Origin: an uncultured Candidatus Saccharibacteria bacterium
Lineage (GTDB): Bacteria; Patescibacteriota; Saccharimonadia; Saccharimonadales; JAUPVS01
Reading direction: 5' to 3'
DNA: 64,000 bases
NCBI GenBank assembly: GCA_964410185.1
Contig: CAYPFM010000001.1
Span: forward strand, 272,860 to 336,859
In this document: positions 2,496-63,204 of the stretch, piece after piece
Numbering within the stretch: the stretch's first letter is position 1
Layout: each line of letters opens with the position of its first letter
Notes under the pieces: model-generated
Databases searched by the model: none
What the model was told of the DNA's origin: nothing
What the model saw: the letters and a program-made list of their open reading frames with translations, nothing else
Position numbers and translations under genes: made by a program

Positions 2496-2531
2496 GCGCT
2501 TAGTCTACATTAACAGAGGTAATTTTACAAG

Positions 2532-2558
2532 TTGGCACTCTTGACAGGTGAGTGCCAA
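2532..2558 (+). promoter_or_regulatory. CIRCE-type HrcA operator (perfect inverted repeat)
   Basis: TTGGCACTC-N9-GAGTGCCAA versus consensus TTAGCACTC-N9-GAGTGCTAA; overlaps the -35 of the hrcA promoter. Confidence 0.85.
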
Positions 2559-2570
2559 AAGCTTTATTAT
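2541..2570 (+). promoter_or_regulatory. Putative sigma-70-type promoter of the hrcA operon
   Basis: TTGACA (2541-2546), 18-nt spacer, TATTAT (2565-2570), 45 nt upstream of the hrcA ATG. Confidence 0.5.
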
Positions 2571-2577
2571 GTAAACA

Positions 2578-2604
2578 CTGGCACTAAAGCCATGAGAGTG
2601 ACAA
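2578..2604 (+). promoter_or_regulatory. Second, degenerate CIRCE-like element
   Basis: CTGGCACTA-N9-GAGTGACAA between the -10 and the hrcA start. Confidence 0.55.
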
Positions 2605-2614
2605 GCGTAATAAC

Positions 2615-3319
2615 ATGACAGAACGACAACAAAAAATATTAGCCGCCATTGTAGAGCAGTATGCCGAGGTTGCAAGCCCGGTTGGTTCTAGCTTGATGGC
2701 CAAGCTTTTTGATGTTTCTTCTGCTACCATCCGCGCCGAAATGGCCGAACTGGAGCGCCATGGCTATATTATGCAGCCTCACACCAGCGCTGGTCGGGTT
2801 CCGACCGACAAGGGCTATCGCCTGTACGTTAATAACTTGGCCGAAGATGCACCAAGTAAGCAAGAACGACGTGGCGAACGTGCCCTGACAGCACGGGTTA
2901 ACGGTGGCGGCTTACCGGAGCGCACCATTCGCAATGCCGTCGATACTTTGGTGGAGCTGACGCATAACTTGGGCATCGCCACAATTGGCGACCAGCTGTA
3001 TATGTCCGGGCTCTCTAATCTATTTGGGCAACCAGAGTTTATTAATGGTCGTGATGTCCAGCAAGTTGCGAGGCTGCTGGACAACCTCGAGCCGTGGCTT
3101 AAGGAAGCTCACCCCAATGAACCGCTGAACGTCTACATTGGGAGCGAGAATCCAGTTGGACGCAACGCTCAGTGCTCATTGATTATCTGTAAATTCCGCA
3201 GTTCATTTAGCGATCAAAGTTATATCGGTGTGCTTGGTCCAACCCGTCAGCAATATCGCGATGTGATGGGTCTGGTCGAGCAAGCCGGACGTGCCTTAGA
3301 GGAGAGACTATATGCCTAA
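2615..3319 (+). CDS. hrcA: Heat-inducible transcription repressor HrcA (short form, 234 aa)
   Basis: N-terminal wHTH (RQQKILAAIVEQYAEVASPVGSSLMAKLFDVSSATIRAEMAELERHGYIMQPHTSAGRVPTDKGYRLYV). Sits first in the hrcA-grpE-dnaK-dnaJ order, with CIRCE upstream. Confidence 0.9.
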   Translation: MTERQQKILAAIVEQYAEVASPVGSSLMAKLFDVSSATIRAEMAELERHGYIMQPHTSAGRVPTDKGYRLYVNNLAEDAPSKQERRGERALTARVNGGGLPERTIRNAVDTLVELTHNLGIATIGDQLYMSGLSNLFGQPEFINGRDVQQVARLLDNLEPWLKEAHPNEPLNVYIGSENPVGRNAQCSLIICKFRSSFSDQSYIGVLGPTRQQYRDVMGLVEQAGRALEERLYA

Positions 3320-9863: not shown

Positions 9864-9897
9864 ACAGCTACACCTCTGATACCGCTCATGCTATGAT

Positions 9898-10395
9898 ATG
9901 AGCATCATGATTATGCAAAACATTGCTTTGCTGTTGGCGATTATCGTCCCTGTGGCGCTGTTAATTTTGCTGCGCACCAACGCTGCGATCGTGTTTTTGA
10001 GCCTTTGCGCCGGATACCTGCTAGTGAATTTTGTCGGTGATGAAGCCGGCTTAGTTGGCTCGATGGTAGGGAACAACTCACTGGTGGTCAGTCAGTACTT
10101 TAAGGTCGCCCTATTGCTGCTGCCAGCCCTGTTGAGTGCCATAATTTTGACCAAATCGATGCGCGGCCCCAAAGGCCTATTGAATGTTTTACCGGCGATT
10201 GCCGTCGGTTTGGTCGGCGTCTTATTGGCCGTACCATTACTACCTAGCACACCGCAACACGCCATTAGTAGCGTCAGTGGCTGGGCGATGCTGAACGACT
10301 ACAAGCAGCTGGTCATAATTGCCAGCGTGGTGGTGAGCCTGGTTATCCTGTGGTTCGCCCGCCCAAGCGTCCACAAAAAGCACCATCACAAGTAG
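9898..10395 (+). CDS. Hypothetical polytopic membrane protein
   Basis: 165 aa with about 5 hydrophobic spans and a His-rich tail (KKHHHK). In-frame ATGs at 9907/9913 are alternative starts downstream of TGCTATGAT (9889-9897). Confidence 0.6.
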   Translation: MSIMIMQNIALLLAIIVPVALLILLRTNAAIVFLSLCAGYLLVNFVGDEAGLVGSMVGNNSLVVSQYFKVALLLLPALLSAIILTKSMRGPKGLLNVLPAIAVGLVGVLLAVPLLPSTPQHAISSVSGWAMLNDYKQLVIIASVVVSLVILWFARPSVHKKHHHK

Positions 10396-10620: not shown

Positions 10621-10718
10621 GATTGTGACGAACACGCGCAGGTGCTGGCACCGAGCATGCGAGGAAACACGAGCGCAGCGAGGCCGCACTGGAACAAGTT
10701 TGCTATAATAATGACAAA

Positions 10719-11921
10719 GTGAACACTATCAAAGCCAATACCCTCAAAAAGAACTTTCGGCTACTATACGCAGTCGAGTTTTTGCTGACATCCGAGTTTA
10801 CGCTACCTATATTCATACTCTTTGGTAGGCAGCAGCTGGGGCTGAGTTATCTGCAGGCGGGCTCGTTCTTTATTGTGACTTACGTGACCTATACGCTATC
10901 CGACTTTTTCGGCGGCACCTTAGCTGATCGTTTTGGGCGTAAGACGGCTTTCCAGGTGGGTGTTGTTTTGCGACTTCTCGGTTTACTACCATTTGTGCTT
11001 ACTCAGTCATACCCGTTGCTACTCGCGTCTGCAGTCGTCTGGGGGTTAGGCCTCGCCCTATCTTCGAATAGTCTAGACGCGCTTATTTACGAGCAGGCAC
11101 TTGAAGAGGGTGAAGAAAAAAGCTATCAGCACGGGACGGCCAATGTGCAGATAGCTACCTTCATGGGGCGAATTTACGCCAGTATACTTGGCGGTTTTGC
11201 CTACGTAATTGATCCAAAGCTGCCGTTTTACTTAACTTTCGTAGCTATCATAGTGGCCTTAGTCATGGGTTCCAAAACTAGGTTTAGTATTGACCTCAAA
11301 GAACGAGTTACCGAGGCGAAACAAGGTATAACGAGTGTAGCGATTGGCACTTACAAAAAACACCATCAGCTGCTAAAGTTCGCCTTGGTATACGCAGGCA
11401 GCATGTTTTTGGCTGACTTGCTCTTTTCTTACTACCAGCCCTACTACATAAAGCTGGGAGTCTCGGCGGGTACACTCGGCTTGGTTTACGCAGGCATTTC
11501 GCTATTCTCGGCTACTGGCTCTTACATGATGAGGAAGCTACCAAACAGATATTCTGCTCACGTCATTAATAGCTTTACGATTTCGACAATCCTACTCACC
11601 AGTCTCGTTTTGTATAGTCTACGACTGCCCTTAGTGTACTTTGCGCCACTGATTATGGGTCTTGGCTCCGGATTTGGTATGCCCAACCTCAGGCAGTTTG
11701 TTAATAAACACGCGCCAAACCGCGTCCGGGCATCGGTTTTGTCGATTGCTACAACAATAGTTAACATTGGCATTGTGGCCGGCATGATAGCTGCCTACGG
11801 CCTTGCCGACAATAGTTCATCACGGAAAATAATCGGCTTGGTAATTTGTGGAACCGTCCTGCTTTTGGCCGTAAACACTTTTGTAAAAACACGCGAAGAA
11901 CAAGGTCATTCTAATAGCTAA
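10719..11921 (+). CDS. MFS transporter
   Basis: 400 aa, about 12 hydrophobic spans, GGTLADRFGRK loop motif between TM2 and TM3. GTG start 9 nt after TGCTATAAT (10701-10709). Confidence 0.85.
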   Translation: MNTIKANTLKKNFRLLYAVEFLLTSEFTLPIFILFGRQQLGLSYLQAGSFFIVTYVTYTLSDFFGGTLADRFGRKTAFQVGVVLRLLGLLPFVLTQSYPLLLASAVVWGLGLALSSNSLDALIYEQALEEGEEKSYQHGTANVQIATFMGRIYASILGGFAYVIDPKLPFYLTFVAIIVALVMGSKTRFSIDLKERVTEAKQGITSVAIGTYKKHHQLLKFALVYAGSMFLADLLFSYYQPYYIKLGVSAGTLGLVYAGISLFSATGSYMMRKLPNRYSAHVINSFTISTILLTSLVLYSLRLPLVYFAPLIMGLGSGFGMPNLRQFVNKHAPNRVRASVLSIATTIVNIGIVAGMIAAYGLADNSSSRKIIGLVICGTVLLLAVNTFVKTREEQGHSNS

Positions 11922-11973
11922 GCCGGTTTTGCTCATGCTTGCCGATCCTCCGAATAAGCAATAGAGTGGATAA

Positions 11974-12633
11974 ATGGCTGAAACACTATTAGCTCCCGGC
12001 GATATCCGCCTCACGGATTTTGAAGTCCCCAAAAGCGAGAGAATACCGATGCTGGGTGCCTGTCTGCTGGCTGAGTTGGACTATATGGAAGAAGCGCATG
12101 ACTTTGCGCTCGAAGAACAAAGCAAGATACGACTCTATCGTCCGGATGATGACATTGGCATGACCCCCGAATATCTTGTCGACCTGCATAACTACTACAA
12201 AGGATTATTGCGGGGTTCAGGTGTTGAGTTTACGCATTTGAAAACTTGGCTTATGCACGGCAAGTACGAGAATCTTTCTTGGCATGTTGATCAGGCTGGC
12301 GACGTGCGCTTCTTGTGGAATCTTGGCGCACCAACATCAGTCGAAATCGCCGAAGAGTGGGACCATAGTTTGTACCAACCAGGCTATCCGACGCATCATG
12401 AACCGGCGCGCACAACAGAACTCGAGCTACCGACTGGGAGTGTCTACGCAGCTAACAACTTGGTTACTGACCCAAATCTTTTAAAGCCGCATCAGACGCC
12501 AAAAGACGAGCCAGACAGGCTTGTTATCAGGACCAGCTTTTATGCTCAAGGAGACTGGGAGGCTCAGGCGATTGATGGCGGCGTGCCGGTTGTGCTAGCT
12601 CCAGATTCAGCCGCCGGGCATCTGCAGCAGTAG
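11974..12633 (+). CDS. Hypothetical protein, possible cupin/2OG-Fe(II)-oxygenase-like fold
   Basis: 219 aa; WHVDQ ... KPHQ ... RLVIRTS spacing resembles an HxD...H...RxS triad (weak, by eye). TAGAGT-N6-ATG upstream. Confidence 0.6.
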   Translation: MAETLLAPGDIRLTDFEVPKSERIPMLGACLLAELDYMEEAHDFALEEQSKIRLYRPDDDIGMTPEYLVDLHNYYKGLLRGSGVEFTHLKTWLMHGKYENLSWHVDQAGDVRFLWNLGAPTSVEIAEEWDHSLYQPGYPTHHEPARTTELELPTGSVYAANNLVTDPNLLKPHQTPKDEPDRLVIRTSFYAQGDWEAQAIDGGVPVVLAPDSAAGHLQQ

Positions 12634-12739
12634 AACCCTGCTTAGTCACCAGAAACACCTCCATCCTGGACGACGTGGCCAAATTACTGAGGCAACGGGA
12701 TTTAAGAACTAGTTAATCTAGTGTTGCTAGGCTCTCGCT

Positions 12740-16618: not shown

Positions 16619-16635
16619 ACTGCTATGCTACTACC

Positions 16636-17109: not shown

Positions 17110-17119
17110 TATTACCTAT

Positions 17120-18732: not shown

Positions 18733-18740
18733 TAGCCGCC

Positions 18741-44752: not shown

Positions 44753-44759
44753 GAAACAT

Positions 44760-46014: not shown

Positions 46015-46070
46015 GCTCAACTAACAAACTAACCCAAAGGAGGCGCCCGCCGTCAGCAAACGCTGGCGGC

Positions 46071-46523: not shown

Positions 46524-46539
46524 CGCTCTTAGTATAGCG

Positions 46540-47265: not shown

Positions 47266-47331
47266 GCTCCTTTAAGCCTAATGAATAACCCCTGTTTTAG
47301 CAACCTTTTCTAGCGTACAATAGCAAGTAAT

Positions 47332-49088: not shown

Positions 49089-49102
49089 GCGTAAGTAAAA
49101 CC

Positions 49103-51078: not shown

Positions 51079-51098
51079 TGGTGTAGAATAAAGCAGTT

Positions 51099-51704: not shown

Positions 51705-51783
51705 TACACGCTCGGATTAGTGCTTTTTGAGCCCCGGTCGCAGCTTCGTTATAGATAACGTGAATTGATGCTATGCTTCTGTC

Positions 51784-52482: not shown

Positions 52483-52521
52483 TGCTTACCTAAGCTGCCA
52501 CCCAGGGTGTTTCAGGAGCTT

Positions 52522-52866
52522 CTACACCTTGGCAATGCCAGCGAGACGGGCGTCGAGCAAGGCAATTATGAGATCTGTTGGTAGCGGCTTCTCGAGCGTA
52601 AACTGAACGGTGCCTCGTGAAGTTTTATAGCCTTCTAGCTTATCACCAAGCATCTCGACAGCCTCGCCACCTGGAAAGAGGCTCATGTGGTTTTTAAAGG
52701 CCGCAAAAGCCACAAGATATTTCTTGTTATATTTGTAGCCCGGCATTCCATAGGTTATGCAGGCTTCGGCCTGGGGCACGTGTTTTTCAATAATCGTTTG
52801 AACACGGCTTAGTTCAGCCTTTTGTGGTGGATCCAAAGTTTTTAGATAGTCGTCAACAACACTCAT
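52522..52866 (-). CDS. DUF1801 (YdhG-like) domain protein
   Basis: DDYLKTLDPPQKAELSRVQTIIEKHVPQAEACITYGMPGYKY. The ATG at 52866 has AGGAGG 7 nt upstream. The GTG at 52872 is the ORF-track start. Confidence 0.7.
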   Translation of the reverse strand: MSVVDDYLKTLDPPQKAELSRVQTIIEKHVPQAEACITYGMPGYKYNKKYLVAFAAFKNHMSLFPGGEAVEMLGDKLEGYKTSRGTVQFTLEKPLPTDLIIALLDARLAGIAKV

Positions 52867-52963
52867 GGACACCTCCTATTCATACAAATAGTATAGCAAT
52901 AAGCCCCCGATAAGTTTGCGGGAGGGAGTACAATGAACATATAAATTGAAAGTGGGGTTCAGC

Positions 52964-53182
52964 ATGGCGAAAGCAACTGAAAAAACAAGTTACAACAAGC
53001 AGGGAGGCATATCGCAGCACAGCGGGGCAGGGGGCATCTGGTTCTTAGGATTCATCGGCACCTTGGCGTACTACCTGCATTATCATTCCGGCAGCTTCAA
53101 GCTCGTGATCATAGCCATTTTTAAAGCCACTTTTTGGCTGGTTTACTTGGTTTACTATCTGTTGCGATTTATGCGCGTGTAG
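52964..53182 (+). CDS. Hypothetical small two-TM protein
   Basis: 72 aa from ATG 52964, with two hydrophobic spans. Confidence 0.45.
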   Translation: MAKATEKTSYNKQGGISQHSGAGGIWFLGFIGTLAYYLHYHSGSFKLVIIAIFKATFWLVYLVYYLLRFMRV

Positions 53183-53187
53183 AAGAG

Positions 53188-53469
53188 TTACCGGTTGTTA
53201 ATCCCGTCGAGTCTCAGTTCATTGCTGTCGTCGCTGTGAGGGCCACTGCTGCCAACGTGTTTTTCGCTTATCTTGGGGCCGTTTTTTATAACGCTTACTA
53301 GGGCCATGGCGTGGCCGCGCCCTAAGTCAAAGTCTTGTTTGAGCCAATCGATTATTTCACCAGCTTTGGTGTTTTTGTTAAATCCTTTGGTAGTGGCTAG
53401 AGCAAGCAGCTCGTTTGGAGTCTTACCAGTTTTCGCTTCGATATTATCAAGATAGGCTTGAAACGACAT
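53188..53469 (-). CDS. DUF4287 domain protein
   Basis: MSFQAYLDNIEAKTGKTPNELLALA...IIDWLKQDFDLGRGHAMAL. Confidence 0.7.
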   Translation of the reverse strand: MSFQAYLDNIEAKTGKTPNELLALATTKGFNKNTKAGEIIDWLKQDFDLGRGHAMALVSVIKNGPKISEKHVGSSGPHSDDSNELRLDGINNR

Positions 53470-53471
53470 GA

Positions 53472-53933
53472 TTATGCGGCTTCGAGCTCGGAGGTCACGA
53501 TTTTTTTCATTTTCATCATGGCCTGGATTGCTTCTGGCCGCCCGCCCATTAACTCGCCCATGTTCTTAGGTATAATTTGCCAGCTGACGCCGAACTTATC
53601 TTTGCACCAACCACATTGCTCGGCTTCTGGGACGTGGGAGAGTTTGGACCAGAAGTAGTCAATTTCGGTCTGATCCTCGCACGATACAAACAGGGAAATC
53701 GCTTCGTTAAACATATACTGTGGGCCACCGTCCAAGCACATAAACTGCTGTCCGTTCAGCTCAAAAATGCCCGTGATAACTTTGCCGGACATACCTTTAA
53801 AGTGCTCATCCAGCGACTCATCGGGGTATTTTTCGACATGCACAATCTTGGAATTCTTAAAGACCGACACATAGTAATTCATCGCCTCTTCGGCATTGTT
53901 ATCGAACCATAGAAAGGGTGTAATTTTTTGCAT
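53472..53933 (-). CDS. VOC/glyoxalase-superfamily protein (PhnB / 3-demethylubiquinone methyltransferase-like domain)
   Basis: MQKITPFLWFDNNAEEAMNYYVSVFKNSKI, CGWCKDKFGVSWQI. TATAAT-N6-ATG upstream. The ORF-track start at 53999 was rejected. Confidence 0.8.
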   Translation of the reverse strand: MQKITPFLWFDNNAEEAMNYYVSVFKNSKIVHVEKYPDESLDEHFKGMSGKVITGIFELNGQQFMCLDGGPQYMFNEAISLFVSCEDQTEIDYFWSKLSHVPEAEQCGWCKDKFGVSWQIIPKNMGELMGGRPEAIQAMMKMKKIVTSELEAA

Positions 53934-54178
53934 ACCTTTATTATAACAAAGGACTACCGAATGAAGCCGGTCGCCAGCATGTGAAGTCGGCAACGACAAC
54001 CACGGCTAATGGTAGTATGAGTAGATGTGGCTTATATACGCACTGGCAACGGCTGGGCTTGTGCCGGTAAGCCGGTAGATACTCCACAACTGTAGCCTTA
54101 GGCAAAAAACGCTCCCAAAGAAAAGAAAGCAACTTTCAAAACTAGCATTCTAGCAAAAACTATGTCATAATATGTATT

Positions 54179-55510
54179 ATGTCAGATACTAGTGGTTCAG
54201 GTGAAGCTTTTGGCGCGCCCTCGGCAGTTGAGTTTGAGAACTTGGTTGCAGGCGTTGCTAACCATGAGGCAAAACTTGCGGTGCTCGGTGTGTACGCAGT
54301 GTATGCAGATCATCATATGACCTATGGTGAGATGAAGACTGAAGTTGACCGGCGTCTTGGGGAAGAGGGTGGTTGGCGTCCGAGTAAGGGCCTCATAGCA
54401 GACTATACCGAAGCATCACTGAGCGATATTGGATGTGTAGTGGAAGGCGAAAAGGCCTTTAGAGGCCGGACGGTAGCCGCCTATCAGGTAACTGAACTGG
54501 GACGCACGCATGGTCTGGCGTTAGTTGGCGCGGTTGGCCGTTGCTCAATAGAGCATGAAGCACCGTCGGTTCAGCAGCTCCTAAGCCAAACGAATAGTTC
54601 GGGTGGAACTCGTGGTCCAGTTAATCGTGCCGGCATTATCGACCGTCTACTTGCCGCTGGGGATGAGGGAGTGAGCATCGATAAGATTGAGCTAGACAAT
54701 CTCGACGGGGACACCATCACGCATATTCTGCAAGGTTTGCGGCCCTTTTTAAGCTACCGATCCAAGTACGAGGGCGATTATAACCGTACCTTTGCCATCA
54801 GAGAGGACACTGCCTACAGCGGCAGAATACCCTACGAAGATATTTCGGCCGAAACACGTGCTATTTACGAAACCCTCAAGTCCATCAGAGAGGCCGGGGA
54901 AGTTCAAACAACTGTCAATGACTTTATTGGCGTGTTGCAGGAGGTGCATCCGAATGTAAACCTAAGGATTATCCGCCACAACCTACTCTCATCTGCGACG
55001 CCTGAAAGAGGTCGGTTGCCAGTCATCCAGTTTATTGATGAGGTGCCCGCGGATAAGATTCCTGATAGTGAAAGAACTGCAATATCCGTTAGGCCAGAGT
55101 ACCGGGCATTTTGCAAAGACCTTATCGAGGCACTAGAAGATATTAAGAACGGCGAAAACACTGCTGCCCACCAAAAAGAGGCGCGTGATATTCTTGGCGA
55201 TCCGGAGATACTCGCCATTCTTTTCAATAAGGCAGCCGAAAACTCGCCAAGAGTTCAAAAAGAGATGCGTGGAACAACCATTGGCGGTGAAGTCCTATCT
55301 GTTATTGGCAAAATTGACCCCGAAAATCCGCTTACCAGTAAGGCGATTCTACACGAGCTCGAAGCATGTGGGATTACAGCCAAACTTCAAACAGTCCAAA
55401 TTGCTTTAACAAGGCTTGAGCGCGAAGGCTCAACTTTGGTAACCACAAAGTCACTACGACCTGGCGCGAAACGAACCGTCAAGCACTACGGTCCCGTCCC
55501 TAAAGAGTAG
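54179..55510 (+). CDS. Orphan 443-aa protein with several winged-helix-like segments
   Basis: No catalytic motif. wHTH-like stretches include MTYGEMKTEVDRRLG...GRTVAAYQVTELGR and LTSKAILHELEACGITAKLQTVQIALTRLEREGSTLV. TGTCATAAT-N7-ATG upstream. Confidence 0.6.
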   Translation: MSDTSGSGEAFGAPSAVEFENLVAGVANHEAKLAVLGVYAVYADHHMTYGEMKTEVDRRLGEEGGWRPSKGLIADYTEASLSDIGCVVEGEKAFRGRTVAAYQVTELGRTHGLALVGAVGRCSIEHEAPSVQQLLSQTNSSGGTRGPVNRAGIIDRLLAAGDEGVSIDKIELDNLDGDTITHILQGLRPFLSYRSKYEGDYNRTFAIREDTAYSGRIPYEDISAETRAIYETLKSIREAGEVQTTVNDFIGVLQEVHPNVNLRIIRHNLLSSATPERGRLPVIQFIDEVPADKIPDSERTAISVRPEYRAFCKDLIEALEDIKNGENTAAHQKEARDILGDPEILAILFNKAAENSPRVQKEMRGTTIGGEVLSVIGKIDPENPLTSKAILHELEACGITAKLQTVQIALTRLEREGSTLVTTKSLRPGAKRTVKHYGPVPKE

Positions 55511-55535
55511 GTAGAGCAAAAGCGCGGAGGGGTTA

Positions 55536-56327
55536 TTATATTTCGGGCCTGGTTATGTCCAGTAGCTGTAGAATGCCCTCTTGTCTATCTCGTCTCTCTT
55601 GAGATGTGAGCCACCTAAGATGTGAGGTGCGTAGCTCTTCCTGCCATCCTGGAACGTCTCCGACAGGTAGTTCATCTCTTCTGTCTACTATCGCCTGAAC
55701 CTCTGCCTGTAACCGTCTGGTGCGGTATCCGCTAACAAAAGGCTGTAAATCTTCTAAGGCTGTGGCTTGTTGTTGCGTGGGGGTGTTGGGTGGCAAGAAA
55801 ATAGTATCGGGATGACTAACTACAACGGCTACGAGGGTTCGAACCAGTTTTGCGGTTTGCTTGGCAACAGCTCTAAGTTCTCGACCAGTCAATGCATCAA
55901 CTGCTCCCTCGCCAAGACTGCGAAGCGCACCGATGGAAGCGATAAAGCCACCGGTTAGGTTGACTCGTTCGGGCTCAGGAGGGTCATACAAACCAATTTC
56001 GATACTTCCGATACGCACAATGCGTTGTGCTTCTGTGCTTGCAAAATGGGCGAGTCCCGCGGCGGGAAGGTATTCATCATATGCCTGCAAATCTTCGATT
56101 GCCGTAATTCTTTGTCCAACTGCCGGTATCCCGCTAGCATCGACTGGAATGCCATCCTCGATTGCAAAACTTGCGGTGGGGCTATTGTCAGGGGTATGAG
56201 CTAGATATACTTGCTTCTTTGGTGCTGACTGCTCGGCAAACCCCGGACTAATGCCCATAAGTGAAGCAAGGTTATCTGCTGTCGGTACTAAGCTTTCTAG
56301 AATCTGCTGTTGATGCGGGTACGACAC
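55536..56327 (-). CDS. Orphan 263-aa protein
   Basis: Long ORF convergent with 54179-55510. GTG start without SD or -10 context (an alternative ATG lies at 56258). No motif recognised. Confidence 0.5.
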   Translation of the reverse strand: MSYPHQQQILESLVPTADNLASLMGISPGFAEQSAPKKQVYLAHTPDNSPTASFAIEDGIPVDASGIPAVGQRITAIEDLQAYDEYLPAAGLAHFASTEAQRIVRIGSIEIGLYDPPEPERVNLTGGFIASIGALRSLGEGAVDALTGRELRAVAKQTAKLVRTLVAVVVSHPDTIFLPPNTPTQQQATALEDLQPFVSGYRTRRLQAEVQAIVDRRDELPVGDVPGWQEELRTSHLRWLTSQERRDRQEGILQLLDITRPEI

Positions 56328-56464
56328 AATACTATTATTCTGGGCCCAAAACGATAAAATGCAACCATAACCGGAATAGTGAGTTCAGTCATCACCAGAC
56401 AGAAGTATTCGGGGCAATAGGTCGCGTTCTAGATAAAATGAGGCCATTGTGCTTATATTTAAGA

Positions 56465-57331
56465 ATGAAGATACCAGCTACCTTGCGGCGCCACAAAATA
56501 TTTGGGGGCTCAGTACTCATCTTACTTGTTTTAGTCAGTTTGCTCGTTGGTAAACAAATGATGCGTGCTGGCGTAGACACATCAAACCCGCCAAAGTTCA
56601 TTCAGGCCGACTTTGTTGATCTTTCCAAAATCTATAGTGTGTCTAAGTTTCGGTCTCTCGCGGGTCACGATTTCTCTGGTGGTGGTGAAGCCTGTCGGAG
56701 TATGAAGCATTACTTTGCGCCGCAACTCGATAAAGCCGCCCAAACCTATATGATGGAGCACAACTTTACTCCCCCTAAACCAGACGGGAAGACTGACATT
56801 CCAATTTATAGTCCGGTCGACGGCAAGGTGGTTAAAATCGCTTCCGAGAATAATGCAACGGGCAACCAGATATATATTGTTCCTGATAACGCGAAAGATT
56901 ATACGATTCGCCTATTTCACATCTGGCCACGTGCGGGCCTAAAAGCGGGTTTGTTATTTGGAATTGGAGGGAGTCACGTTAAAGCCGGTGAGCAAATTGG
57001 TGTTATTGGCGCCTACCAAGAAACCGATATTGCCATACAAGCCAAAGATAAGATAAAGGGTAGCACCTACGTCTCGTATTTTGATGTGATGCCCGACAAG
57101 CTGTTCGATAGCTATATCGCACGCGGTGTGGTCGCTAGAGACGACTTGATAATTTCAAAAGAAAAGCGAGATGCAAATGCGGTTACGTGCCAGTCGAGAA
57201 GCCAAGGGGAGCGGTTCAATAAACCACCCGGGTTCGACGAGAATGCCGATTATGTACGGCTGTCGGGGTATATAAAAGTCAACAGTGATGGGTCAATTGT
57301 GGGCGGGAGCGCAAACCCACAACACAACTAA
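56465..57331 (+). CDS. Secreted/anchored protein with degenerate LytM/M23-like beta-barrel region
   Basis: N-terminal TM (RRHKIFGGSVLILLVLVSLLVG). PVDGKVV...IRLFHI...VKAGEQIGVIG resembles the M23 core, but the HxxxD and HxH motifs are not intact. TGCTTATAT-N6-ATG upstream. Confidence 0.5.
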   Translation: MKIPATLRRHKIFGGSVLILLVLVSLLVGKQMMRAGVDTSNPPKFIQADFVDLSKIYSVSKFRSLAGHDFSGGGEACRSMKHYFAPQLDKAAQTYMMEHNFTPPKPDGKTDIPIYSPVDGKVVKIASENNATGNQIYIVPDNAKDYTIRLFHIWPRAGLKAGLLFGIGGSHVKAGEQIGVIGAYQETDIAIQAKDKIKGSTYVSYFDVMPDKLFDSYIARGVVARDDLIISKEKRDANAVTCQSRSQGERFNKPPGFDENADYVRLSGYIKVNSDGSIVGGSANPQHN

Positions 57332-57564
57332 TTCTTCTGTTTAGCCAGATACCCGCGAATGCCCGCGAAAAAATATAGCCCGGAAGCTATAAAAGTAGCC
57401 AGTAGGACCCCGCAAAAAATCAGTAACCCCTCCCAGGCATTCCCCTGGCCATCCGTGCTTATCACAAACACACTGGTCCCGAGCAACAGACCACTAAGGA
57501 GTAGTGTCACAAATGCGTACTCTAAATCTTGTCGAGTCCGAAAAATATTCCACAGTCTTTTCAT
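57328..57564 (-). CDS. Hypothetical 78-aa two-TM protein
   Basis: Two hydrophobic spans; TATAGT-N6-ATG upstream. Confidence 0.5.
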   Translation of the reverse strand: MKRLWNIFRTRQDLEYAFVTLLLSGLLLGTSVFVISTDGQGNAWEGLLIFCGVLLATFIASGLYFFAGIRGYLAKQKN

Positions 57565-57573
57565 AACTTAACT

Positions 57574-57600
57574 ATAACAAAAAGACTTCCGAAGAAGTCT
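57574..57600 (-). terminator. Rho-independent terminator (minus strand)
   Basis: AGACTTC-TTCG-GAAGTCT followed by TTTTTGTT on the minus strand, downstream of 57683-58066. Confidence 0.65.
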
Positions 57601-57682
57601 CTCGTGGTGCAGGTCTATTGCTTGTATGTTCTGGGTGCCATCAGCAATTCAAAACAAAAGCATACTTCTTAATGTGCTGACT

Positions 57683-58066
57683 TTATAGATTTGAGGTTAA
57701 GAAAGCTCTCAGACTTACTAGATCTTTTTTAGTTGGGTCGTAGTAGTATGTTTTTATTCCTGCAGTTTCGGCACTGTTGACGGCTTCTTGATTGTGTTCA
57801 AAGAAAATTACCTCGCTGGCTTGAAGGTTGTATTTTTCAAGCAGTATATGAAAGTATTTTGGGTCTGTTTTCTCTGGGTCGTGCTTTAGGCTAAACACTT
57901 CGTACGGCACTTGGCCAAGATTATATTGCTTGAACTGCTCATCATTAGCACCGGTAAGTACAATTTTTCTATTTGGAAAAGTTTCAAGCATTTCGTACAT
58001 TTCCTCAAACAGCGTGCCGTCTTTCAGTACTATGCCGTCAATTGCATCAACTAGTATCGTTTTCAT
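57683..58066 (-). CDS. Small HAD-like protein with non-canonical motif I
   Basis: 127 aa; ILVDAIDGIV in place of DxDxT, VLTGAN, IFFEHN. TGCTACAAT-N7-ATG upstream. Confidence 0.5.
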   Translation of the reverse strand: MKTILVDAIDGIVLKDGTLFEEMYEMLETFPNRKIVLTGANDEQFKQYNLGQVPYEVFSLKHDPEKTDPKYFHILLEKYNLQASEVIFFEHNQEAVNSAETAGIKTYYYDPTKKDLVSLRAFLTSNL

Positions 58067-58182
58067 AATCTTAATTGTAGCAAACTTCCAAAAGGTCTTG
58101 AATTAAACAAACAGATACAAATTGGTGCCAATAGTACGGTGGTGTTTCTATTAGAACGAACTGGTATCTGTTTAGGTATCTT

Positions 58183-58259
58183 TGGAGGGCCAGGAGGGAC
58201 TCGAACCCTCGACATTCTGCTTAAGAGGCAGACGCTCTAACCAGCTGAGCTACTGGCCC
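58183..58259 (-). tRNA. tRNA-Lys (anticodon CUU), CCA encoded
   Basis: Reverse complement folds with GGGCCAG/CTGGCCC acceptor and anticodon loop CTCTTAA; 77 nt. Confidence 0.93.
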
Positions 58260-58293
58260 ATGTTGTTCATAACTATGTGTTGAGAACTGTGCA

Positions 58294-58322
58294 ATTCTAC
58301 CATATACCCCTGTTAGAGGCAA
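58294..58322 (-). promoter_or_regulatory. Putative promoter of tRNA-Lys(CUU)
   Basis: Minus strand: TTGCCT, 17 nt, TGgTAGAAT. Confidence 0.45.
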
Positions 58323-58394
58323 GTGTAAGGTTTATACTCCATTTTTCTGAAAAAGTGCTGTATACTCAAAGTAACATTAACAACGGAGGGCATA

Positions 58395-58871
58395 ATGCTC
58401 AATCTTTTAGCAGCAGCAACTAGTTACGACTATACTTACACAACAACCACAACCAGCGGTAGCGGTGGTGCGGCACTTGGGGCAACTTTTGTTGTCTTGA
58501 TGCTCATTGCTTTGGTCTTCGCAGTTGTAGCCATTGTCGCCATGTGGCGCATTTTCGAAAAAGCCGGGGAAAAGGGCTGGAAGTCACTTATTCCAGTTTA
58601 TAACTCATGGATTCTATTTGAGATCTCTGGCAAACCAGGCTGGTGGGCGCTCGTTGCGCTTATCCCATACGTTGGTTCATTCGTTTACCTCGTCCTTTAC
58701 ATCCTGGCTGCCCTACAGCTGGCTAAGAACTTTGGTAAGAGCCAATCGTTTGCCATCTTTGGTCTGATCATCTTCTCAGTCGTTGGCATGTTGATGCTCG
58801 GCTTTGGTGATGCGAAGTACGTTGGTAAGAAATACGTTTCCGGTGGCACCACGCCACCAGCTGCCGCTTAG
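58395..58871 (+). CDS. DUF5684-like membrane protein
   Basis: IFEKAGEKGWKSLIPVYNSWILFEISGKPGWWALVALIPYVG; GGAGGG RBS. Confidence 0.7.
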   Translation: MLNLLAAATSYDYTYTTTTTSGSGGAALGATFVVLMLIALVFAVVAIVAMWRIFEKAGEKGWKSLIPVYNSWILFEISGKPGWWALVALIPYVGSFVYLVLYILAALQLAKNFGKSQSFAIFGLIIFSVVGMLMLGFGDAKYVGKKYVSGGTTPPAAA

Positions 58872-58892
58872 GTAGTCCGGATCTGTTTCGTA

Positions 58893-58922
58893 AAGAGTCA
58901 CCTCTGTGGGGTGGCTCTTTTC
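58893..58922 (+). terminator. Rho-independent terminator
   Basis: AAGAGTCACC / GGTGGCTCTT stem (one G-U pair) followed by TTTTC. Confidence 0.7.
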
Positions 58923-58930
58923 ATGCTACA

Positions 58931-59746
58931 ATGGCAGTAATGCAAAAGTTACTGAACGGTCGAGACCTGGCCGATTACATAAAGGAGCGTCAAGGCCACC
59001 AGGTTCGTGCCTTGGTGCAAGCCCACGGTATTCAGCCTAAACTGGCTATCTTGACCACTGGCGAAAACTCGGTTATCGAAGTCTACATGCGTATGAAAAA
59101 ACGCTACGGTGCCGAAATTGGCATCGAAGTTGATATCCATACGGTCGACCAAGCCGATCTGCTACCGCTCATTAAAAAGCTCAACAAAGATGACAGCGTG
59201 CAGGGCATGATTGTGCAGCTGCCGTTGAAGGACCCAAGTCAGACAGACGAAGTTGTTGATGCCATCGCTCCCGCCAAGGATGTTGACGCACTTGGTAAGG
59301 ACGCAATTTACGAACCCGCTACGCCGCTGTCGATTATTTGGTTGCTGGCTGGTTACAACATCGATCTTAAAGACAAAAAAATACTGTTAATTGGTCGCGG
59401 TAAGCTGGTTGGCGCACCCTTAGAGCGCATGTTCCAGGCTTCCAAATACGACGTTGAGGTCGCTAACAGCAAGGTGACTGATCTTAAGGCTATGGCGCTC
59501 AAGGCTGATGTCATCATTAGCGCCACCGGCCGCGCTGGAATCCTGCAAGCGGATATGATCAAGCCAGGCGCTGTGGTGGTAGACGCCGGAACTGCCAGCG
59601 AAGGCGGTAAAACCGTTGGCGACGTCGAACCGGCAGTTTTTGAACGCGACGACATCACCATTACGCCCCAAAAGGGCGGCGTTGGCCCGTTAACTGTCTG
59701 CGCCTTATTCGAGAATACTATCCGGGCTTGTGGCCAAAAGGCGTAA
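58931..59746 (+). CDS. folD: Bifunctional methylene-THF dehydrogenase / methenyl-THF cyclohydrolase
   Basis: LNGRDLADYIKE, VQLPLKDP, GRGKLVGAPL, PQKGGVGPLTVCAL. The real start may be the ATG at 58940, 7 nt after TGCTACAAT. Confidence 0.93.
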   Translation: MAVMQKLLNGRDLADYIKERQGHQVRALVQAHGIQPKLAILTTGENSVIEVYMRMKKRYGAEIGIEVDIHTVDQADLLPLIKKLNKDDSVQGMIVQLPLKDPSQTDEVVDAIAPAKDVDALGKDAIYEPATPLSIIWLLAGYNIDLKDKKILLIGRGKLVGAPLERMFQASKYDVEVANSKVTDLKAMALKADVIISATGRAGILQADMIKPGAVVVDAGTASEGGKTVGDVEPAVFERDDITITPQKGGVGPLTVCALFENTIRACGQKA

Positions 59747-60991
59747 GTCTCCAGGCATGCTGCTGGCAGCTAAGGCACGGTAATCGTAGTCTTCAGGGAT
59801 ATCGAACACATATTCCTTCAGTTCCGGGTAGATGTCCTGGGCAAGACGCATCGCCGCCCGGCTTTCTTTGATTTCACCCACGCACTCGAGGGGTTTGTCA
59901 CCTTCAATACCTAGTATTTGGCGATAGAGCGGTTCGAGCGAAGACTCCAGGAGCAGATTCTTGCCATGGAATAGTTTCTCTAATTCGTCGCGCGACACAA
60001 ATGGGGTCAGTGCCAGGAATACAAAGGCGCATTTTGGACAATGGCCACACCAGAACATGCTGTGACTGTCGTGGGTGAAAGCGCGGTTGCAAGAGCTAAA
60101 AACCGATTTATACTTTTCGAAATCATGCTTGGCGAAGATTTCTGCAATGTGAACCTCGGACAGGGGTCGAAGGAAGGAATAGTAGTGGAGGCTATCGCCA
60201 AAATCGTGCAGCAGTACCGCTTGGTAGCTTTTTTCAAAATCAAGTGACTTGGAGTACTGGTGGTTAATAGCAACACCTTGATACTCTAGAGTTGCTTCGT
60301 TGGCCGAGTTTTCGTTCGAAACAATTACATCGCGCTTACCACTCAGAATAGAGACGACAGTGCCCACGGCAGCAAAGATTGCCGAGATTGGGATGTGTCC
60401 ATTGTAGGCACCTTGTTTATTGTGCTCGAGCAGGGCTGGGTCCCAAGCTCTTTCCACCCAAAAGTGGGGTAGTCCGATGGTATTGATGAGGGGCTCAAGC
60501 TGCGATTGGTGATCCAGGCTCCAGGTTGCCGTATCTGGTAGGTGACGGAGGCGTTCGATACTGACCAAGGAGTCTTTGCCTCCACCAATGCCGACCAAAA
60601 GACCATGGCCGTCAACCATTACGGGATCAAGCTCCGAAGAATTGGCGGTGAAGGGGATTGGCGACAGGGGATTGAGCTTGTTAACGTAAAAGAATTCACC
60701 CAGACCCTTTTGATAGGTGGTTGTTAGAAAGTTAGCGGCAGTTGAGTCAAGCTGTCCCTTGTCGATCGCAATGTTTGGAGCCAAATACATCTTGTAGTAA
60801 GAAATGCCAGCCACAAAAAACAGCAGCTGGCAGGCCCGATCCAGGGCTGCGGCATTGTAATCGACAAAATCAAAGTTAAAACGGTAATTTTCGCGAAATT
60901 CTAGCTCATCGTCATAGCCGTAGGTCAGGTTTAGTACTTTGGTGGCCTTATCAAACGCATAGTCTTTAAAGCGAAATGTTTGGTAGTTCAT
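59705..60991 (-). CDS. PP-loop-like protein downstream of murD; candidate UDP-MurNAc-L-Ala-L-Glu epimerase (MurL-like)
   Basis: 428 aa; LLVGIGGGKDSLVS (SGGxDS-like), C-terminal WCGHCPKCAFVF. 4-nt overlap with murD. Family assignment is from memory of the MurD2/MurL pairing, not from a search. Confidence 0.55.
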   Translation of the reverse strand: MNYQTFRFKDYAFDKATKVLNLTYGYDDELEFRENYRFNFDFVDYNAAALDRACQLLFFVAGISYYKMYLAPNIAIDKGQLDSTAANFLTTTYQKGLGEFFYVNKLNPLSPIPFTANSSELDPVMVDGHGLLVGIGGGKDSLVSIERLRHLPDTATWSLDHQSQLEPLINTIGLPHFWVERAWDPALLEHNKQGAYNGHIPISAIFAAVGTVVSILSGKRDVIVSNENSANEATLEYQGVAINHQYSKSLDFEKSYQAVLLHDFGDSLHYYSFLRPLSEVHIAEIFAKHDFEKYKSVFSSCNRAFTHDSHSMFWCGHCPKCAFVFLALTPFVSRDELEKLFHGKNLLLESSLEPLYRQILGIEGDKPLECVGEIKESRAAMRLAQDIYPELKEYVFDIPEDYDYRALAASSMPGDLRLLATSPDSILE

Positions 60992-62328
60992 AGAGCCCTC
61001 ACCGCCGCTTGGTACTGTTGGCCACGATCTTCGAAATTCCTAAACATGTCAAAGCTAGCAAAGCCTGGTGATAGCAAAACACTATCGCCGGCTTGAGCAA
61101 CGGCCTTGGCGGCGGTGACTATTTGAGCCATTGATGCATCGGTCAGTACCTGGTAGTTACTGAAACCAGCTGCATCAAGGGCCGAAGTGAGTCGTTCGGC
61201 ACTTTGACCGACCACGAGTAACTTACGAATATCGGCCTGGTGCATGGCGATTGTTTGGGTGAGGTTCGTCAAATCAAGGCCACGGTCGAAGCCGCCAACA
61301 ATGACTACTTTTGGTCCCGTAACAGCGTTGAGGGCAGCCATGGCTGCCTCGGGCGTTGCCGCAAATGAATCGTTATAAAAACTGACTTCATCAACTTGGC
61401 GCACCAGCTCTAAGCGATGCTCTAGCCCCTTAAATTGACTAATAACCTGCTTGGCTACAGCCGCATCTTGACCAATCAATTCCCAGGTCGTGGCAATGGC
61501 GGCGCAAACATTCTCGAGGTTGTGTCGCCCCAACAGGGCTACGTCGGTTATGTCACAGATTGGCGTTTGATCCATGTAAATCGTCTCACCCTGCAGGTAG
61601 GCGCCGCTGGTGCTGGTTGGCATAGCGTCAGGCCCAGGGACCTCATAGCTCAGTTTGCGGGCGGGTGAAATACTAACTATGGTTTGTGAATTCGCTTCAT
61701 TTCGGTTATACACAGCCGTATCGGTCGCAACTTGGTGAGCGAAAAGCTGTTGTTTGGCAGTGACATACTCGTCCATATCGGCATGCCAATTCAGATGTTC
61801 CGGCACCACCATCAGGCAGGTTGCCAGGGTCGGGGAGTACTTAATGTCAATGAGTTGGAAGTTCGACAGCTCTAAAACCACCCAGTCGTCTGGTTGAATG
61901 CCGTTTTTGAGCATCTCGAGTGGGGCGACGCCAATGTTGCCACCGAGGTGTACGGTTTTTCCGGCCGCTTCAAGCAGCTTGCTAATCAGTGTCGAGGTCG
62001 TGCCTTTGCCCTTTGTGCCCGTAACCCCAATGATATTTTTTGTGGGGCAGACCCGAAAGAATTCATTGGTAACAGAGGTAACTTTCTCGAGGATATGGGG
62101 ACTGTCGGGGTTGGCGGCGCTAATGTCACCAGGGTACAAGCCTGGGCTGCGCACGATGATATCAAAAGCATCAAGATTCTGCAGATAGTCGGCACCCGTT
62201 TGCATAGCAACCCCTTCTGGGAGGGCAACTTCGTTTTGATCACAAACCGTTATCTCAGCACCATCTTTATGCCAGTAGTCTAGGGCCGCTTGGCCCTCTT
62301 TCCCGTAGCCTAGAATCGCGATCTTCAT
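60988..62328 (-). CDS. murD: UDP-N-acetylmuramoyl-L-alanine--glutamate ligase (MurD; possibly L-Glu-specific MurD2)
   Basis: Mur-ligase P-loop GVTGTKGKGTTSTL; 446 aa. Confidence 0.92.
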   Translation of the reverse strand: MKIAILGYGKEGQAALDYWHKDGAEITVCDQNEVALPEGVAMQTGADYLQNLDAFDIIVRSPGLYPGDISAANPDSPHILEKVTSVTNEFFRVCPTKNIIGVTGTKGKGTTSTLISKLLEAAGKTVHLGGNIGVAPLEMLKNGIQPDDWVVLELSNFQLIDIKYSPTLATCLMVVPEHLNWHADMDEYVTAKQQLFAHQVATDTAVYNRNEANSQTIVSISPARKLSYEVPGPDAMPTSTSGAYLQGETIYMDQTPICDITDVALLGRHNLENVCAAIATTWELIGQDAAVAKQVISQFKGLEHRLELVRQVDEVSFYNDSFAATPEAAMAALNAVTGPKVVIVGGFDRGLDLTNLTQTIAMHQADIRKLLVVGQSAERLTSALDAAGFSNYQVLTDASMAQIVTAAKAVAQAGDSVLLSPGFASFDMFRNFEDRGQQYQAAVRAL

Positions 62329-62330
62329 AA

Positions 62331-62705
62331 TTATTTACTGGCGAGCTGTGTTTTAACGAGTTCAGCCACTTGGCGCGGGGTCATATCTGCCTTAAGAATA
62401 ACCGCAGCCACTCCCATCTTCTTGACGCCTTCGGGGATTTCTTGCTCACCCATGTTCGTGAGGATGACCACCGTGATTGATTTGCCCCAGGTGGTTTTAC
62501 GCATTTTGGCCAGCATTTCGTCGCCATTCATCTCGGGCATCATAAGGTCGAGCAGAATAATGTCTGGCTTCATTGTCTCGGCTAGCTCTAAGCCAAGTTT
62601 GCCATTTTCGGCTGTCTCGACTTCGTAACCCTCGGCCTCGAACTTGATGCGGTACATCTGCGAGATAGCCTGGTCATCTTCGATAATTGCAATTTTTGCG
62701 GCCAT
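62331..62705 (-). CDS. Stand-alone response-regulator receiver domain protein
   Basis: 124 aa; IEDD, ILLDLMMP (phospho-acceptor Asp), VVILTN, ILKAD. Its stop lies 2 nt before murD. Confidence 0.88.
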   Translation of the reverse strand: MAAKIAIIEDDQAISQMYRIKFEAEGYEVETAENGKLGLELAETMKPDIILLDLMMPEMNGDEMLAKMRKTTWGKSITVVILTNMGEQEIPEGVKKMGVAAVILKADMTPRQVAELVKTQLASK

Positions 62706-62733
62706 ATATGAGTAGTATACTACGGGACCGGTA

Positions 62734-63105
62734 TTAGTTAGACAATATGTCCTTAACCTTTTCGGCTACTTGTGCGGGCGTGTGGTAGGCTTTGGCGACA
62801 ATTTCTGTCACCGCCAGTTTATCGAGCCCTTTGGGCACCTCCTGCTCACCAACATTCGTGAAGACGATAACAGGGGTGTGCTTGTGTTTAGTCGTCTTAC
62901 GAAGTTTGGTCAGCATTTCAGCTCCCCCCATCTGTGGCATCATGATATCCAGGAGCACCAAATCAGCATTGTAGTCTTTGAGCAGTTCCAGACCAAGCAC
63001 GCCATTGACAGCCGTCTTAACGGTGTAGCCTTCGGCTTCAAACTTTAACCGGTACATTTGTAGGATGGCCGGGTCATCTTCGATTATGGCAATCTTGTGA
63101 CTCAT
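62734..63105 (-). CDS. Stand-alone response-regulator receiver domain protein (paralog)
   Basis: 123 aa; IEDD, VLLDIMMP, VIVFTN, IVAKAY. TACCAT-N6-ATG upstream. Confidence 0.88.
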   Translation of the reverse strand: MSHKIAIIEDDPAILQMYRLKFEAEGYTVKTAVNGVLGLELLKDYNADLVLLDIMMPQMGGAEMLTKLRKTTKHKHTPVIVFTNVGEQEVPKGLDKLAVTEIVAKAYHTPAQVAEKVKDILSN

Positions 63106-63204
63106 GTTTTTATGGTACGCCTACAGCAAGCATTTGCAAGCCATAAGCGCAGCGACACCAAGATGGTGGTATAGTTAAGCTAGCAGTAATAAAAAGGTAC
63201 ATAC

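Follow-up and report, generated by a model that had tools for sequence, protein, structure and literature searches.

Introduction

Group C of the GeneMarkS-2 classification is described as the class of genomes in which a Pribnow box lies 6-8 nucleotides (nt) from where the first genes of operons start (PMC6028130; Lomsadze et al. 2018). The account given there predicts the class for 1,028 of 4,769 bacterial genomes, with high frequencies in Actinobacteria (90%) and in Deinococcus-Thermus (97%) and a minority presence in Proteobacteria and Firmicutes (PMC6028130). Experimentally mapped leaderless transcriptomes are attributed to two bacteria in PMC6028130 and PMC12641261, where Cortes et al. 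2013 is cited for Mycobacterium tuberculosis and de Groot et al. 2014 for Deinococcus deserti. We have analysed a 64,000-nt stretch of DNA from an uncultured Candidatus Saccharibacteria bacterium (contig CAYPFM010000001.1, positions 272,860 to 336,859; the whole stretch is hereafter the window), in which hexamers of the form TANNNT, resembling the -10 box of a bacterial promoter, recur immediately ahead of start codons. The original prediction was that such genes are leaderless. Our analysis makes it very likely that they are leaderless transcription units, whose -10 promoters would fire at the AUG, with translation of a 5′-terminal AUG to follow.

Shine-Dalgarno (SD)-independent translation of 5′-terminal AUGs is known from Actinobacteria, Deinococcus and a few Escherichia coli mRNAs. 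Mycobacteria use GTG too for leaderless genes, whereas the signal in Saccharibacteria is almost only at ATG. The window resembles group C in having the box 6-8 nt from first-gene starts and SD sequences on the other genes. Five of the seven features that define the class can be recognized in the sequence, namely box position, promoter identity, operon-first position, SD absence and AUG preference. The differences lie in the phylum, in the reliance of the window promoters on a TGn extended -10 and in the unusually short leaders (~16-22 nt) on leadered genes. The leaderless share of operons predicted for group C in the published account is 25-50% (PMC6028130), compared with approximately two thirds of the transcription-unit heads in our window. 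With M. tuberculosis and D. deserti, as these are portrayed in the papers cited above, the window shares a probable transcription start site (TSS) at the start codon (A/G), TANNNT ~7 nt upstream and SD-led genes alongside. Those two cases rest on dRNA-seq and proteomics, the Saccharibacteria case on sequence statistics and comparative genomics. Archaeal leaderless genes (group D) are similar in that transcription begins at the start codon, in a mixture with SD-led internal genes, but their promoter box is ~26 nt upstream, as opposed to the 6-9 nt of the bacterial -10 seen here.

As a mechanism this is already known; the phylum is one for which we found no published description. A literature search that combined leaderless or Shine-Dalgarno with the names of Saccharibacteria and the candidate phyla radiation (CPR) returned no paper on leaderless genes in these bacteria, its matches being entries in reference lists or the word in an unrelated sense; this is not proof that they are unreported or absent from the GeneMarkS-2 assignments made at NCBI. 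A preprint on the TM7x RNA-seq transcriptome makes no mention of TSSs, untranslated regions or promoters. A 2025 promoter survey includes 188 RNA-seq-derived TSSs of N. lyticus, where the distance from -10 to TSS is more variable (PMC12641261).

The window and the loci compared

The window has a GC content of ~0.49 throughout and carries hrcA-grpE-dnaK-dnaJ, ruvCAB, recA-recX, comEC, murA/B/D, tatAC, a sortase gene, rny, folA, folD and glyA, a gene set that fits a small-genome Saccharibacterium (TM7, CPR). The closest relatives of its RecA (19975-21009) share 72-82% identity and occur in Candidatus Saccharibacteria / Saccharimonadales metagenome-assembled genomes; for GlyA there are 80 metagenomic relatives of 77-96% identity. 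Looked up by exact sequence, the HTH-MurA protein gave no match and RuvB matched two short Logan contigs only. An Rfam scan of the window at the gathering threshold gave eight tRNAs, no leader RNAs and no other match.

The comparison set consists of the window and 96 related loci, with 1,243 genes pooled. Twenty of these are Saccharibacteria loci round recA (343 genes) and 76 are non-redundant loci round glyA (833 genes). Starts in the window were assigned by greedy picking of open reading frames (ORFs) by length, taking the first ATG of each long ORF and ignoring the motif, which avoids circularity. The gap is the number of nt between the end of the hexamer and the start codon, and the strict box is TA[TC]A[AC]T.

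Enrichment of the -10 box before start codons

TANNNT occurs at a gap of 6-8 in 22 of the 77 motif-blind window starts; among internal in-frame ATGs the figure is 11 of 373 (2.9%; Fisher p=4e-11), among out-of-frame ATGs 19 of 436. Eleven genes form a sharp peak at offset -12; there are 6 genes at -13, 5 each at -14 and -15, and only 0-4 at offsets of -16 and beyond.

Could composition or the definition of an ORF generate such a pattern? AT-rich DNA, upstream stops and the TAA or TAG that opens an ORF might yield TANNNT by chance. Two observations lean that way. Window-wide, the distances from TANNNT to the next ATG are weakly peaked (34-35 at gaps 6-8 against ~24 elsewhere) because most TANNNT occurrences are intragenic. 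In four gap-6 boxes (starts 2495, 11974, 12740 and 44399) the TAG doubles as the in-frame stop that opens the ORF, so that only the final T is independent, with 12740 and 44399 rescued by a TGC prefix. Set against this, 2000 shuffles of the same upstream 45 nt gave a mean of 4.5 (sd 2.0, maximum 14) as opposed to the 22 observed, and control offsets in the real upstream sequences gave 4 (gaps 12-14), 7 (gaps 20-22) and 2 (gaps 30-32). The strict box, in which positions 1-3 cannot be a stop, is present 10 times in the window as against 0.33 in shuffles, and 96 times at gap 6 clade-wide; for the TGNTANNNT motif the window figures are 10 and 0.28. Divergent genes have no upstream same-strand stop, yet 18 of 28 possess a box. 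The strict motif, the other offsets and the divergent genes refute an artefact of this kind for the whole set, and we give it almost no chance of being right, though an isolated weak site, 11974 for instance, may still be explained by it.

The 20 hexamer, gap and start combinations of the original prediction and its five looser cases, 25 in all, are present in the sequence, as are the extended TGC prefixes that it described (TGCTATGCT twice, TGCTAGGCT, TGCTAGAGT and TGCTACAAT twice), and the comparison with shuffled upstream regions that it suggested shows enrichment in the window. Most of its hexamers are indeed TANNNT, whilst CATAAT (54166) and TTATAT (56453) are off-pattern and the start at 56465 is ambiguous. 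At least seven further sites were recognized, at 17120, 18741, 22194(-), 31610(-), 35740(-), 47265(-) and 62705(-), and probably also 9907. The sites are as follows.

2493-2507, minus strand, adk: TAGACT, gap 6, ATG 2495; TTGTAA 17 nt upstream of the box
9889-9909, plus strand, hypothetical gene: TGCTATGAT, gap 9, ATG 9907; alternative ATGs at 9898 and 9913, start ambiguous
10701-10721, plus strand, MFS transporter: TGCTATAAT, gap 9, GTG 10719; expected leader ~2-3 nt
11962-11976, plus strand, hypothetical 219-aa gene: TAGAGT, gap 6, ATG 11974; the weakest box
12725-12742, plus strand, comEC: TGCTAGGCT, gap 6, ATG 12740
16621-16638, plus strand, ruvC: TGCTATGCT, gap 6, ATG 16636
17107-17122, plus strand, ruvA: TAATAT, gap 7, ATG 17120
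18725-18743, plus strand, bPH_2 gene: TGCTATAAT, gap 7, ATG 18741; box overlaps the ruvB stop codon
22192-22209, minus strand, hypothetical 174-aa gene: TATAAT, gap 9, ATG 22194
22250-22264, plus strand, tsaE: TACCAT, gap 6, ATG 22262
31608-31631, both strands, divergent pair: ATG 31610(-) with TGCTAGTAT, gap 7; ATG 31629(+) with TATACT, gap 6
35738-35757, minus strand, P-type ATPase: TGGTATACT, gap 8, ATG 35740
35799-35814, plus strand, hypothetical 124-aa gene: TACAAT, gap 7, ATG 35812
40577-40593, minus strand, HTH-murA fusion: TATAAT, gap 8, ATG 40579
40645-40659, plus strand, glyA: TACAAT, gap 6, ATG 40657
42975-42991, minus strand, murB: TATAAT, gap 8, ATG 42977
43702-43719, plus strand, VKOR paralogue 1: TATACT, gap 9, ATG 43717
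44384-44401, plus strand, hypothetical 117-aa gene: TGCTAGAGT, gap 6, ATG 44399
46521-46536, minus strand, hypothetical 150-aa gene: TATACT, gap 7, ATG 46523
47263-47280, minus strand, ZIP transporter: TAGGCT, gap 9, ATG 47265; weak, AAGGAG adjoins the ATG
47316-47334, plus strand, Mur ligase: TACAAT, gap 10, ATG 47332; expected leader ~3-4 nt
51084-51101, plus strand, VKOR paralogue 2: TAGAAT, gap 9, ATG 51099
51769-51786, plus strand, DUF5995 gene: TGCTATGCT, gap 6, ATG 51784
53931-53948, minus strand, PhnB-like (3-dmu-9_3-mt) gene: TGTTATAAT, gap 6, ATG 53933
54163-54181, plus strand, hypothetical 443-aa gene: TGTCATAAT, gap 7, ATG 54179; first base of the box off-consensus
56450-56467, plus strand, M23-like gene: TGCTTATAT, gap 6 (or TATATT, gap 5), ATG 56465; box and start doubtful
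57562-57579, minus strand, hypothetical 78-aa gene: TGTTATAGT, gap 6, ATG 57564
58064-58082, minus strand, HAD-fragment gene: TGCTACAAT, gap 7, ATG 58066
58924-58942, plus strand, folD: TGCTACAAT, gap 7, ATG 58940
62703-62719, minus strand, response regulator 2: TATACT, gap 8, ATG 62705
63103-63117, minus strand, response regulator 1: TACCAT, gap 6, ATG 63105

About 24-30 of the ~73 window genes are in this arrangement, corresponding to approximately two thirds of transcription-unit heads. The related loci display the same signal, and on the sequences compared the arrangement is a property of the Saccharibacteria clade. In the recA-region loci, again with motif-blind starts, TANNNT is found at -12 in 15.7% of genes and in ~3% at other offsets. 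In the glyA-region loci the values at -12, -13 and -14 are 13.1%, 8.0% and 6.1%, over an upstream background of ~3% and ~1% at internal ATGs; SD tetramers in the same loci peak at -11 to -9. The strict box is distributed by gap over the 1,243 genes as follows, on a background of ~3 genes per position.

Gap 5: 4 genes
Gap 6: 96 genes
Gap 7: 49 genes
Gap 8: 43 genes
Gap 9: 25 genes
Gap 10: 14 genes

A second, broad mode at gaps 22-28 is accompanied by SD sequences. With a gap of 6 the ATG begins at the seventh base past the box, and a sharp lower edge there is expected if the transcript must include the AUG and RNA polymerase starts ~7 nt beyond the box. By start codon, the strict box precedes 16.6% of ATG, 2.5% of GTG and 0.5% of TTG starts clade-wide, a contrast somewhat inflated because many of the longest GTG and TTG starts are probably false. 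The same pipeline applied to loci from other phyla gave a strict box at gap 6-9 in 8 of 783 genes, although these loci are mostly GC-richer, so that the internal ATGs within the clade are the fairer control. Five of the eight boxes fall in two loci, one from Candidatus Peribacteria (L022, 2 of 21 genes) and one from Anaerolineales (L067, 3 of 18). With the sample from these two loci small, this hints that the trait may reach other CPR lineages and Chloroflexota.

Promoter character of the box

With 31 sites aligned on the hexamer, T occupies position 3 in 15 and A position 4 in 22 (background 0.21, p=3e-9), and 28 have A or C at position 5. These positions, on which the sites had not been selected, match the sigma-70 -10 consensus TATAAT. 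Sigma-70 promoters of the extended -10 type (TGnTATAAT) work without a -35 element. The TGn extension is present at 14 of the 31 sites as opposed to 8.8% of all 1,725 TANNNT hexamers that the window contains (p=1e-7), an approximately five-fold difference, and in this, as in the lack of a -35 consensus in the window, the sites resemble extended -10 promoters. The resemblance is incomplete, since some orthologous promoters (those of murA and of the HTH_31 gene at 43045) keep a conserved TTGnnn ~17 nt upstream and the -35 is thus not universally absent.

The box is also found where no start codon follows closely.

38633-38654, plus strand, tRNA-Gly comparator (untranslated gene): TGCTATAAT ends 12 nt before the tRNA 5′ end
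19941-19977, plus strand, recA comparator for the second mode: TATACT 19941-19946, GGAGG 19965-19969, ATG 19975; leader of ~21 nt implied

In addition TGATATACT ends 13 nt before tRNA-Arg, and a box lies 23-29 nt upstream of genes with a clear SD, namely recA, yebC, the DUF1801 gene 52866(-), the DUF5684 gene 58395 and the ThiF gene 63205. The match to the sigma-70 consensus and the presence before untranslated genes are the behaviour of a promoter element, not of a ribosome-binding site (RBS).

Operon context leads to the same conclusion. The starts used in the following comparison were curated from profiles and orthologues, which gives the counts a slight lean toward the hypothesis.

Same-strand neighbour at most 25 nt upstream, 27 genes: box at gap 5-10 in 6, SD-like in 12, neither in 9
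Same-strand neighbour more than 25 nt upstream, 18 genes: box at gap 5-10 in 12, SD-like in 4, neither in 2
Divergent neighbour, 28 genes: box at gap 5-10 in 18, SD-like in 6, neither in 4

Transcription-unit heads therefore carry the box in 30 of 46 cases and operon-internal genes in 6 of 27 (p=6e-4). A box at unit heads with GGAG-type SD sequences in internal genes is the pattern of a promoter, not that of an RBS. The two signals rarely coincide: of the 227 genes clade-wide whose strict box is at gap 6-10, only three have a GGAG, GAGG or AGGA match too, and within the window 47265(-) is the only boxed gene with an adjacent SD (AAGGAG). The 5′ ends appear to fall into two classes, one at the ATG and the other ~16-22 nt upstream with GGAG or GGAGG.

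A translational signal would be the obvious alternative, with the box acting as a non-SD RBS of the Bacteroidota type (group B) on a longer leader and no promoter involved. The likeness is real to the extent that the motif is A/T-rich, lies at the usual place of an RBS near the start and lacks SD complementarity. The group B motif, however, precedes all genes including operon-internal ones, whereas here the internal genes mostly have GGAG and the box is at the heads. An RBS would account neither for the complete TATAAT consensus with its TGn extension nor for the occurrence of the identical box ahead of tRNA genes and, at 23-29 nt, upstream of SD-led genes. The sharp edge at 6 nt fits a TSS constraint rather than base pairing with rRNA, and the widespread use of GGAGG implies an intact anti-SD. 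We judge this explanation to be very improbable.

Independent checks on start codons

Profiles of protein families and alignments of orthologues provide evidence on the starts that is independent of the box. Residue 1 of RuvC corresponds to position 1 of the RuvC profile, and residue 1 of each response regulator (62705 and 63105) to position 1 of its profile. For RuvA, the methionine of ATG 17120 is residue 23 of the long ORF and is matched by position 1 of the Pfam profile RuvA_N. Several FolD profiles place position 1 at residue 4 of the long ORF, that is ATG 58940 and not 58931. Position 3 of the SHMT profile matches GlyA residue 5 counted from ATG 40657, and all but one of the 80 GlyA relatives align from residue 1, the exception (L106) from residue 6. 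MurB residue 2 is profile position 3. In the PhnB-like protein Pfam profile position 1 is residue 24 of the long ORF, directly after the methionine at 53933 (residue 23). The TsaE profile prefers ATG 22262 over TTG 22226, the HTH profile begins at residue 7 of HTH-MurA and the NCBIfam adenylate kinase profile at residue 13 of Adk. The public call for ruvA in the identical ruvB neighbourhood (L161 354-1001, equivalent to window 17054-17701) takes the long ORF from 17054, encodes 215 aa and overlaps ruvC. Judging by profile and orthologues, which put the start at ATG 17120, that call is 22 codons too long.

These checks bear on a further possibility, that the boxes are ordinary promoters ahead of misassigned start codons, with translation really beginning downstream, so that what we take for N-terminal codons would be 5′ leader. 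Among the flagged genes roughly one in three lacks a family match, which leaves room for such errors. The flagged ATG is nevertheless within 0-4 residues of the family N-terminus for ruvC, ruvA, folD, glyA, murB, the PhnB-like gene and the two response regulators, orthologue alignments begin at residue 1 with ATGs co-located, and displaced starts would leave the ATG-specific spacing with its 6-nt edge unexplained. We consider systematic error in the starts quite unlikely.

Conservation and change among orthologues

Orthologues of several boxed genes retain the arrangement, as follows.

Gene 22194(-): box at gap 6-9 in 15 of 17, nearly all TATAAT or TATACT; starts align at residue 1
ruvC: box at gap 5-9 in 6 of 9 (5 TATAAT or TATACT, 1 TAAAGT)
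ruvA: box at gap 5-9 in 7 of 8
murA: box at gap 6-9 in 57 of 72, most others at gap 10; weak GAGG only in L120 and L121
murB: box at gap 6-9 in 43 of 48; the arrangement persists to 25% protein identity
HTH_31 gene at 43045: box at gap 6-9 in 28 of 35; the box of the window copy is 14 nt away

For tsaE the box is at gap 6-9 in most orthologues, and for the 124-aa gene (35812) at gap 6-7 in all three found. Locus L083 has TATAAT at gap 6 before the orthologue of the 46523 gene, TACAGT at gap 6 before that of the ZIP transporter (47265) and an identical arrangement at the Mur ligase (47332). In the conserved orthologues the start codons are co-located and the remaining upstream DNA has diverged. 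The second mode is conserved also, with recA and rny preceded by GGAG or AGGA in nearly all orthologues (n=20 for recA) and a TATAAT box farther upstream.

The mode of initiation is not fixed per gene, with glyA and the P-type ATPase split between the two. The leaderless form of glyA is present in the window and in four of 79 orthologues (L081, L083, L108 and L123), the other 75 being SD-led. At the P-type ATPase (35740) L083 keeps the box arrangement and seven more distant orthologues are SD-led. In L082, whose GlyA is 90% identical, the region ~1640-1790 retains TACAAT-N6-ATG as a relic; TTG TAG comes next, then ~75 nt of inserted DNA that brings a new GAGGGAG site immediately before glyA. 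The locus seems to have been caught in passing from leaderless to SD-led initiation.

Individual loci

A CIRCE element, TTGGCACTC-N9-GAGTGCCAA, occupies 2532-2558, between the leaderless-like adk and the divergent, leadered hrcA-grpE-dnaK-dnaJ operon. It has two mismatches to the consensus, with 0.02 chance matches expected. TTGACA lies inside its loop and a weaker second copy is near 2577-2603.

The 219-aa gene at 11974 gave no match in the family search and no orthologue among the compared loci. The divergent starts 31610(-) and 31629(+) are separated by an 18-bp intergenic gap, in which the -10 hexamers overlap on opposite strands. The 31629(+) ORF (region 31608-31715) encodes a 28-aa peptide, MIFVLLVVVILYNATVLGIWLYNRRRKR, consisting of a single transmembrane-like helix followed by RRRKR; it looks like a small membrane protein, and the family search returned no match for it.

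In the murA product (39056-40579, minus strand) an XRE-type HTH (residues 7-59) is fused N-terminally to MurA (residues 72-503). The promoter (~40588-40615) contains a palindrome, ATACC-N6-GGTAT, that overlaps the -10 box and is kept as ATAYCA-N5-TGRTAT in ~70 orthologous loci (L081-L160). It is probably an operator through which the fused HTH regulates its own gene.

Two VKOR-family paralogues are present, at 43717-44343 and 51099-51704, and in each the ATG follows a -10 box at gap 9. A terminator-like hairpin, GAGAGACTTCTTCGGAAGTCTTTT (57580-57603, minus strand), abuts the TGTTATAGT box of the 57564 gene, and its T-tract is contiguous with the extended -10. The 127-aa ORF at 57683-58066 (minus strand) is matched by HAD-family profiles over positions 69-152 of 154, their C-terminal half only, and may be a truncated gene or remnant despite a good TGCTACAAT box at gap 7.

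Assessment of the leaderless reading

We propose that the promoters are of the sigma-70 type, mostly extended -10 (TGnTAnnnT), with the -35 weak or absent. RNA polymerase would start ~7 nt past the hexamer, which at gap 6-7 is the A of the AUG; at gap 8-10 a leader of 1-3 nt would be likelier than a strictly leaderless mRNA. With the 5′ end of the mRNA at the AUG there would be no space for an SD, and a ribosome with initiator tRNA would bind the 5′-terminal AUG directly by the leaderless pathway. The remaining unit heads, with their -10 box 23-29 nt upstream, would have a minimal leader of ~16-22 nt carrying GGAG or GGAGG, and operon-internal genes would use SD sequences.

The motif, its spacing, promoter-like character and distribution among genes, many correct starts and conservation across genomes are directly observed; the position of the transcription start and the mode of translation are inferred from sequence. 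Several points weigh against this reading. No -35 consensus was seen among the window sites, and when 40000-59999 was scanned for generic -35/-10 promoters the 25 sites obtained were no enrichment over shuffled sequence (22.8±5.4) and included only two of the flagged promoters. The -35 element is thus uninformative here, and the absence of its consensus is expected for extended -10 promoters. The gap-6 boxes that begin with TAG follow in part from the definition of an ORF, and the curated starts behind the operon comparison lean slightly in its favour. The profile checks cover genes with a family match, outside which fall 11974, 35812, 44399, 46523, 54179 and 57564. Individual cases that are weak are 11974, 47265, 54179, 56465, 8229 and 56258. 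Each of the three alternatives considered above is contradicted for the whole set, and may hold for single weak cases.

The leaderless reading offered in the original prediction is supported by promoter identity, spacing, ATG-specificity, operon position, the start checks and conservation. Its expectation that orthologues conserve the spacing is borne out by murA, murB, ruvC and ruvA, which keep the box distance across ~100 Saccharibacteria loci, and the suggestion that the pattern helps in choosing start codons agrees, for folD at 58940, with the N-terminus of the profile. Two modes of initiation do coexist as it proposed, with SD sites in operon-internal genes and the box at heads. Among the genes to which it assigned a classic GGAGG, recA, tatA, 3803 and 58395 have one and dnaK has AGGAG instead.

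Implications

What would such an arrangement mean for these bacteria? There is, in our view, a little better than an even chance that Saccharibacteria, and possibly the wider CPR, form a leaderless-rich lineage in which most transcription units start at the AUG, the others have leaders of ~16-22 nt, and orthologues flip between modes via small indels between the -10 and the ATG. Such flips are suggested because glyA is leaderless in four orthologues and SD-led in 75, and because of the relic in L082.

If this is true, systematic mis-calls of starts would be expected in CPR metagenome-assembled genomes annotated with SD-based gene finders. Starts in the CPR are mostly set by gene finders that favour SD sequences or long ORFs, and the ruvA call that is 22 codons too long is an example. 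The -10-to-ATG rule settles the starts of ruvA, folD, glyA, tsaE and the PhnB-like gene. Genetic manipulation of Saccharibacteria has recently become feasible (PMC10633639), and in the design of constructs native promoters could be fused directly to the ATG, or a leader of ~20 nt with GGAGG would suffice. The finding would add a deep-branching lineage with reduced genomes to the heavily leaderless bacteria, together with concrete cases in which orthologues have switched between modes.

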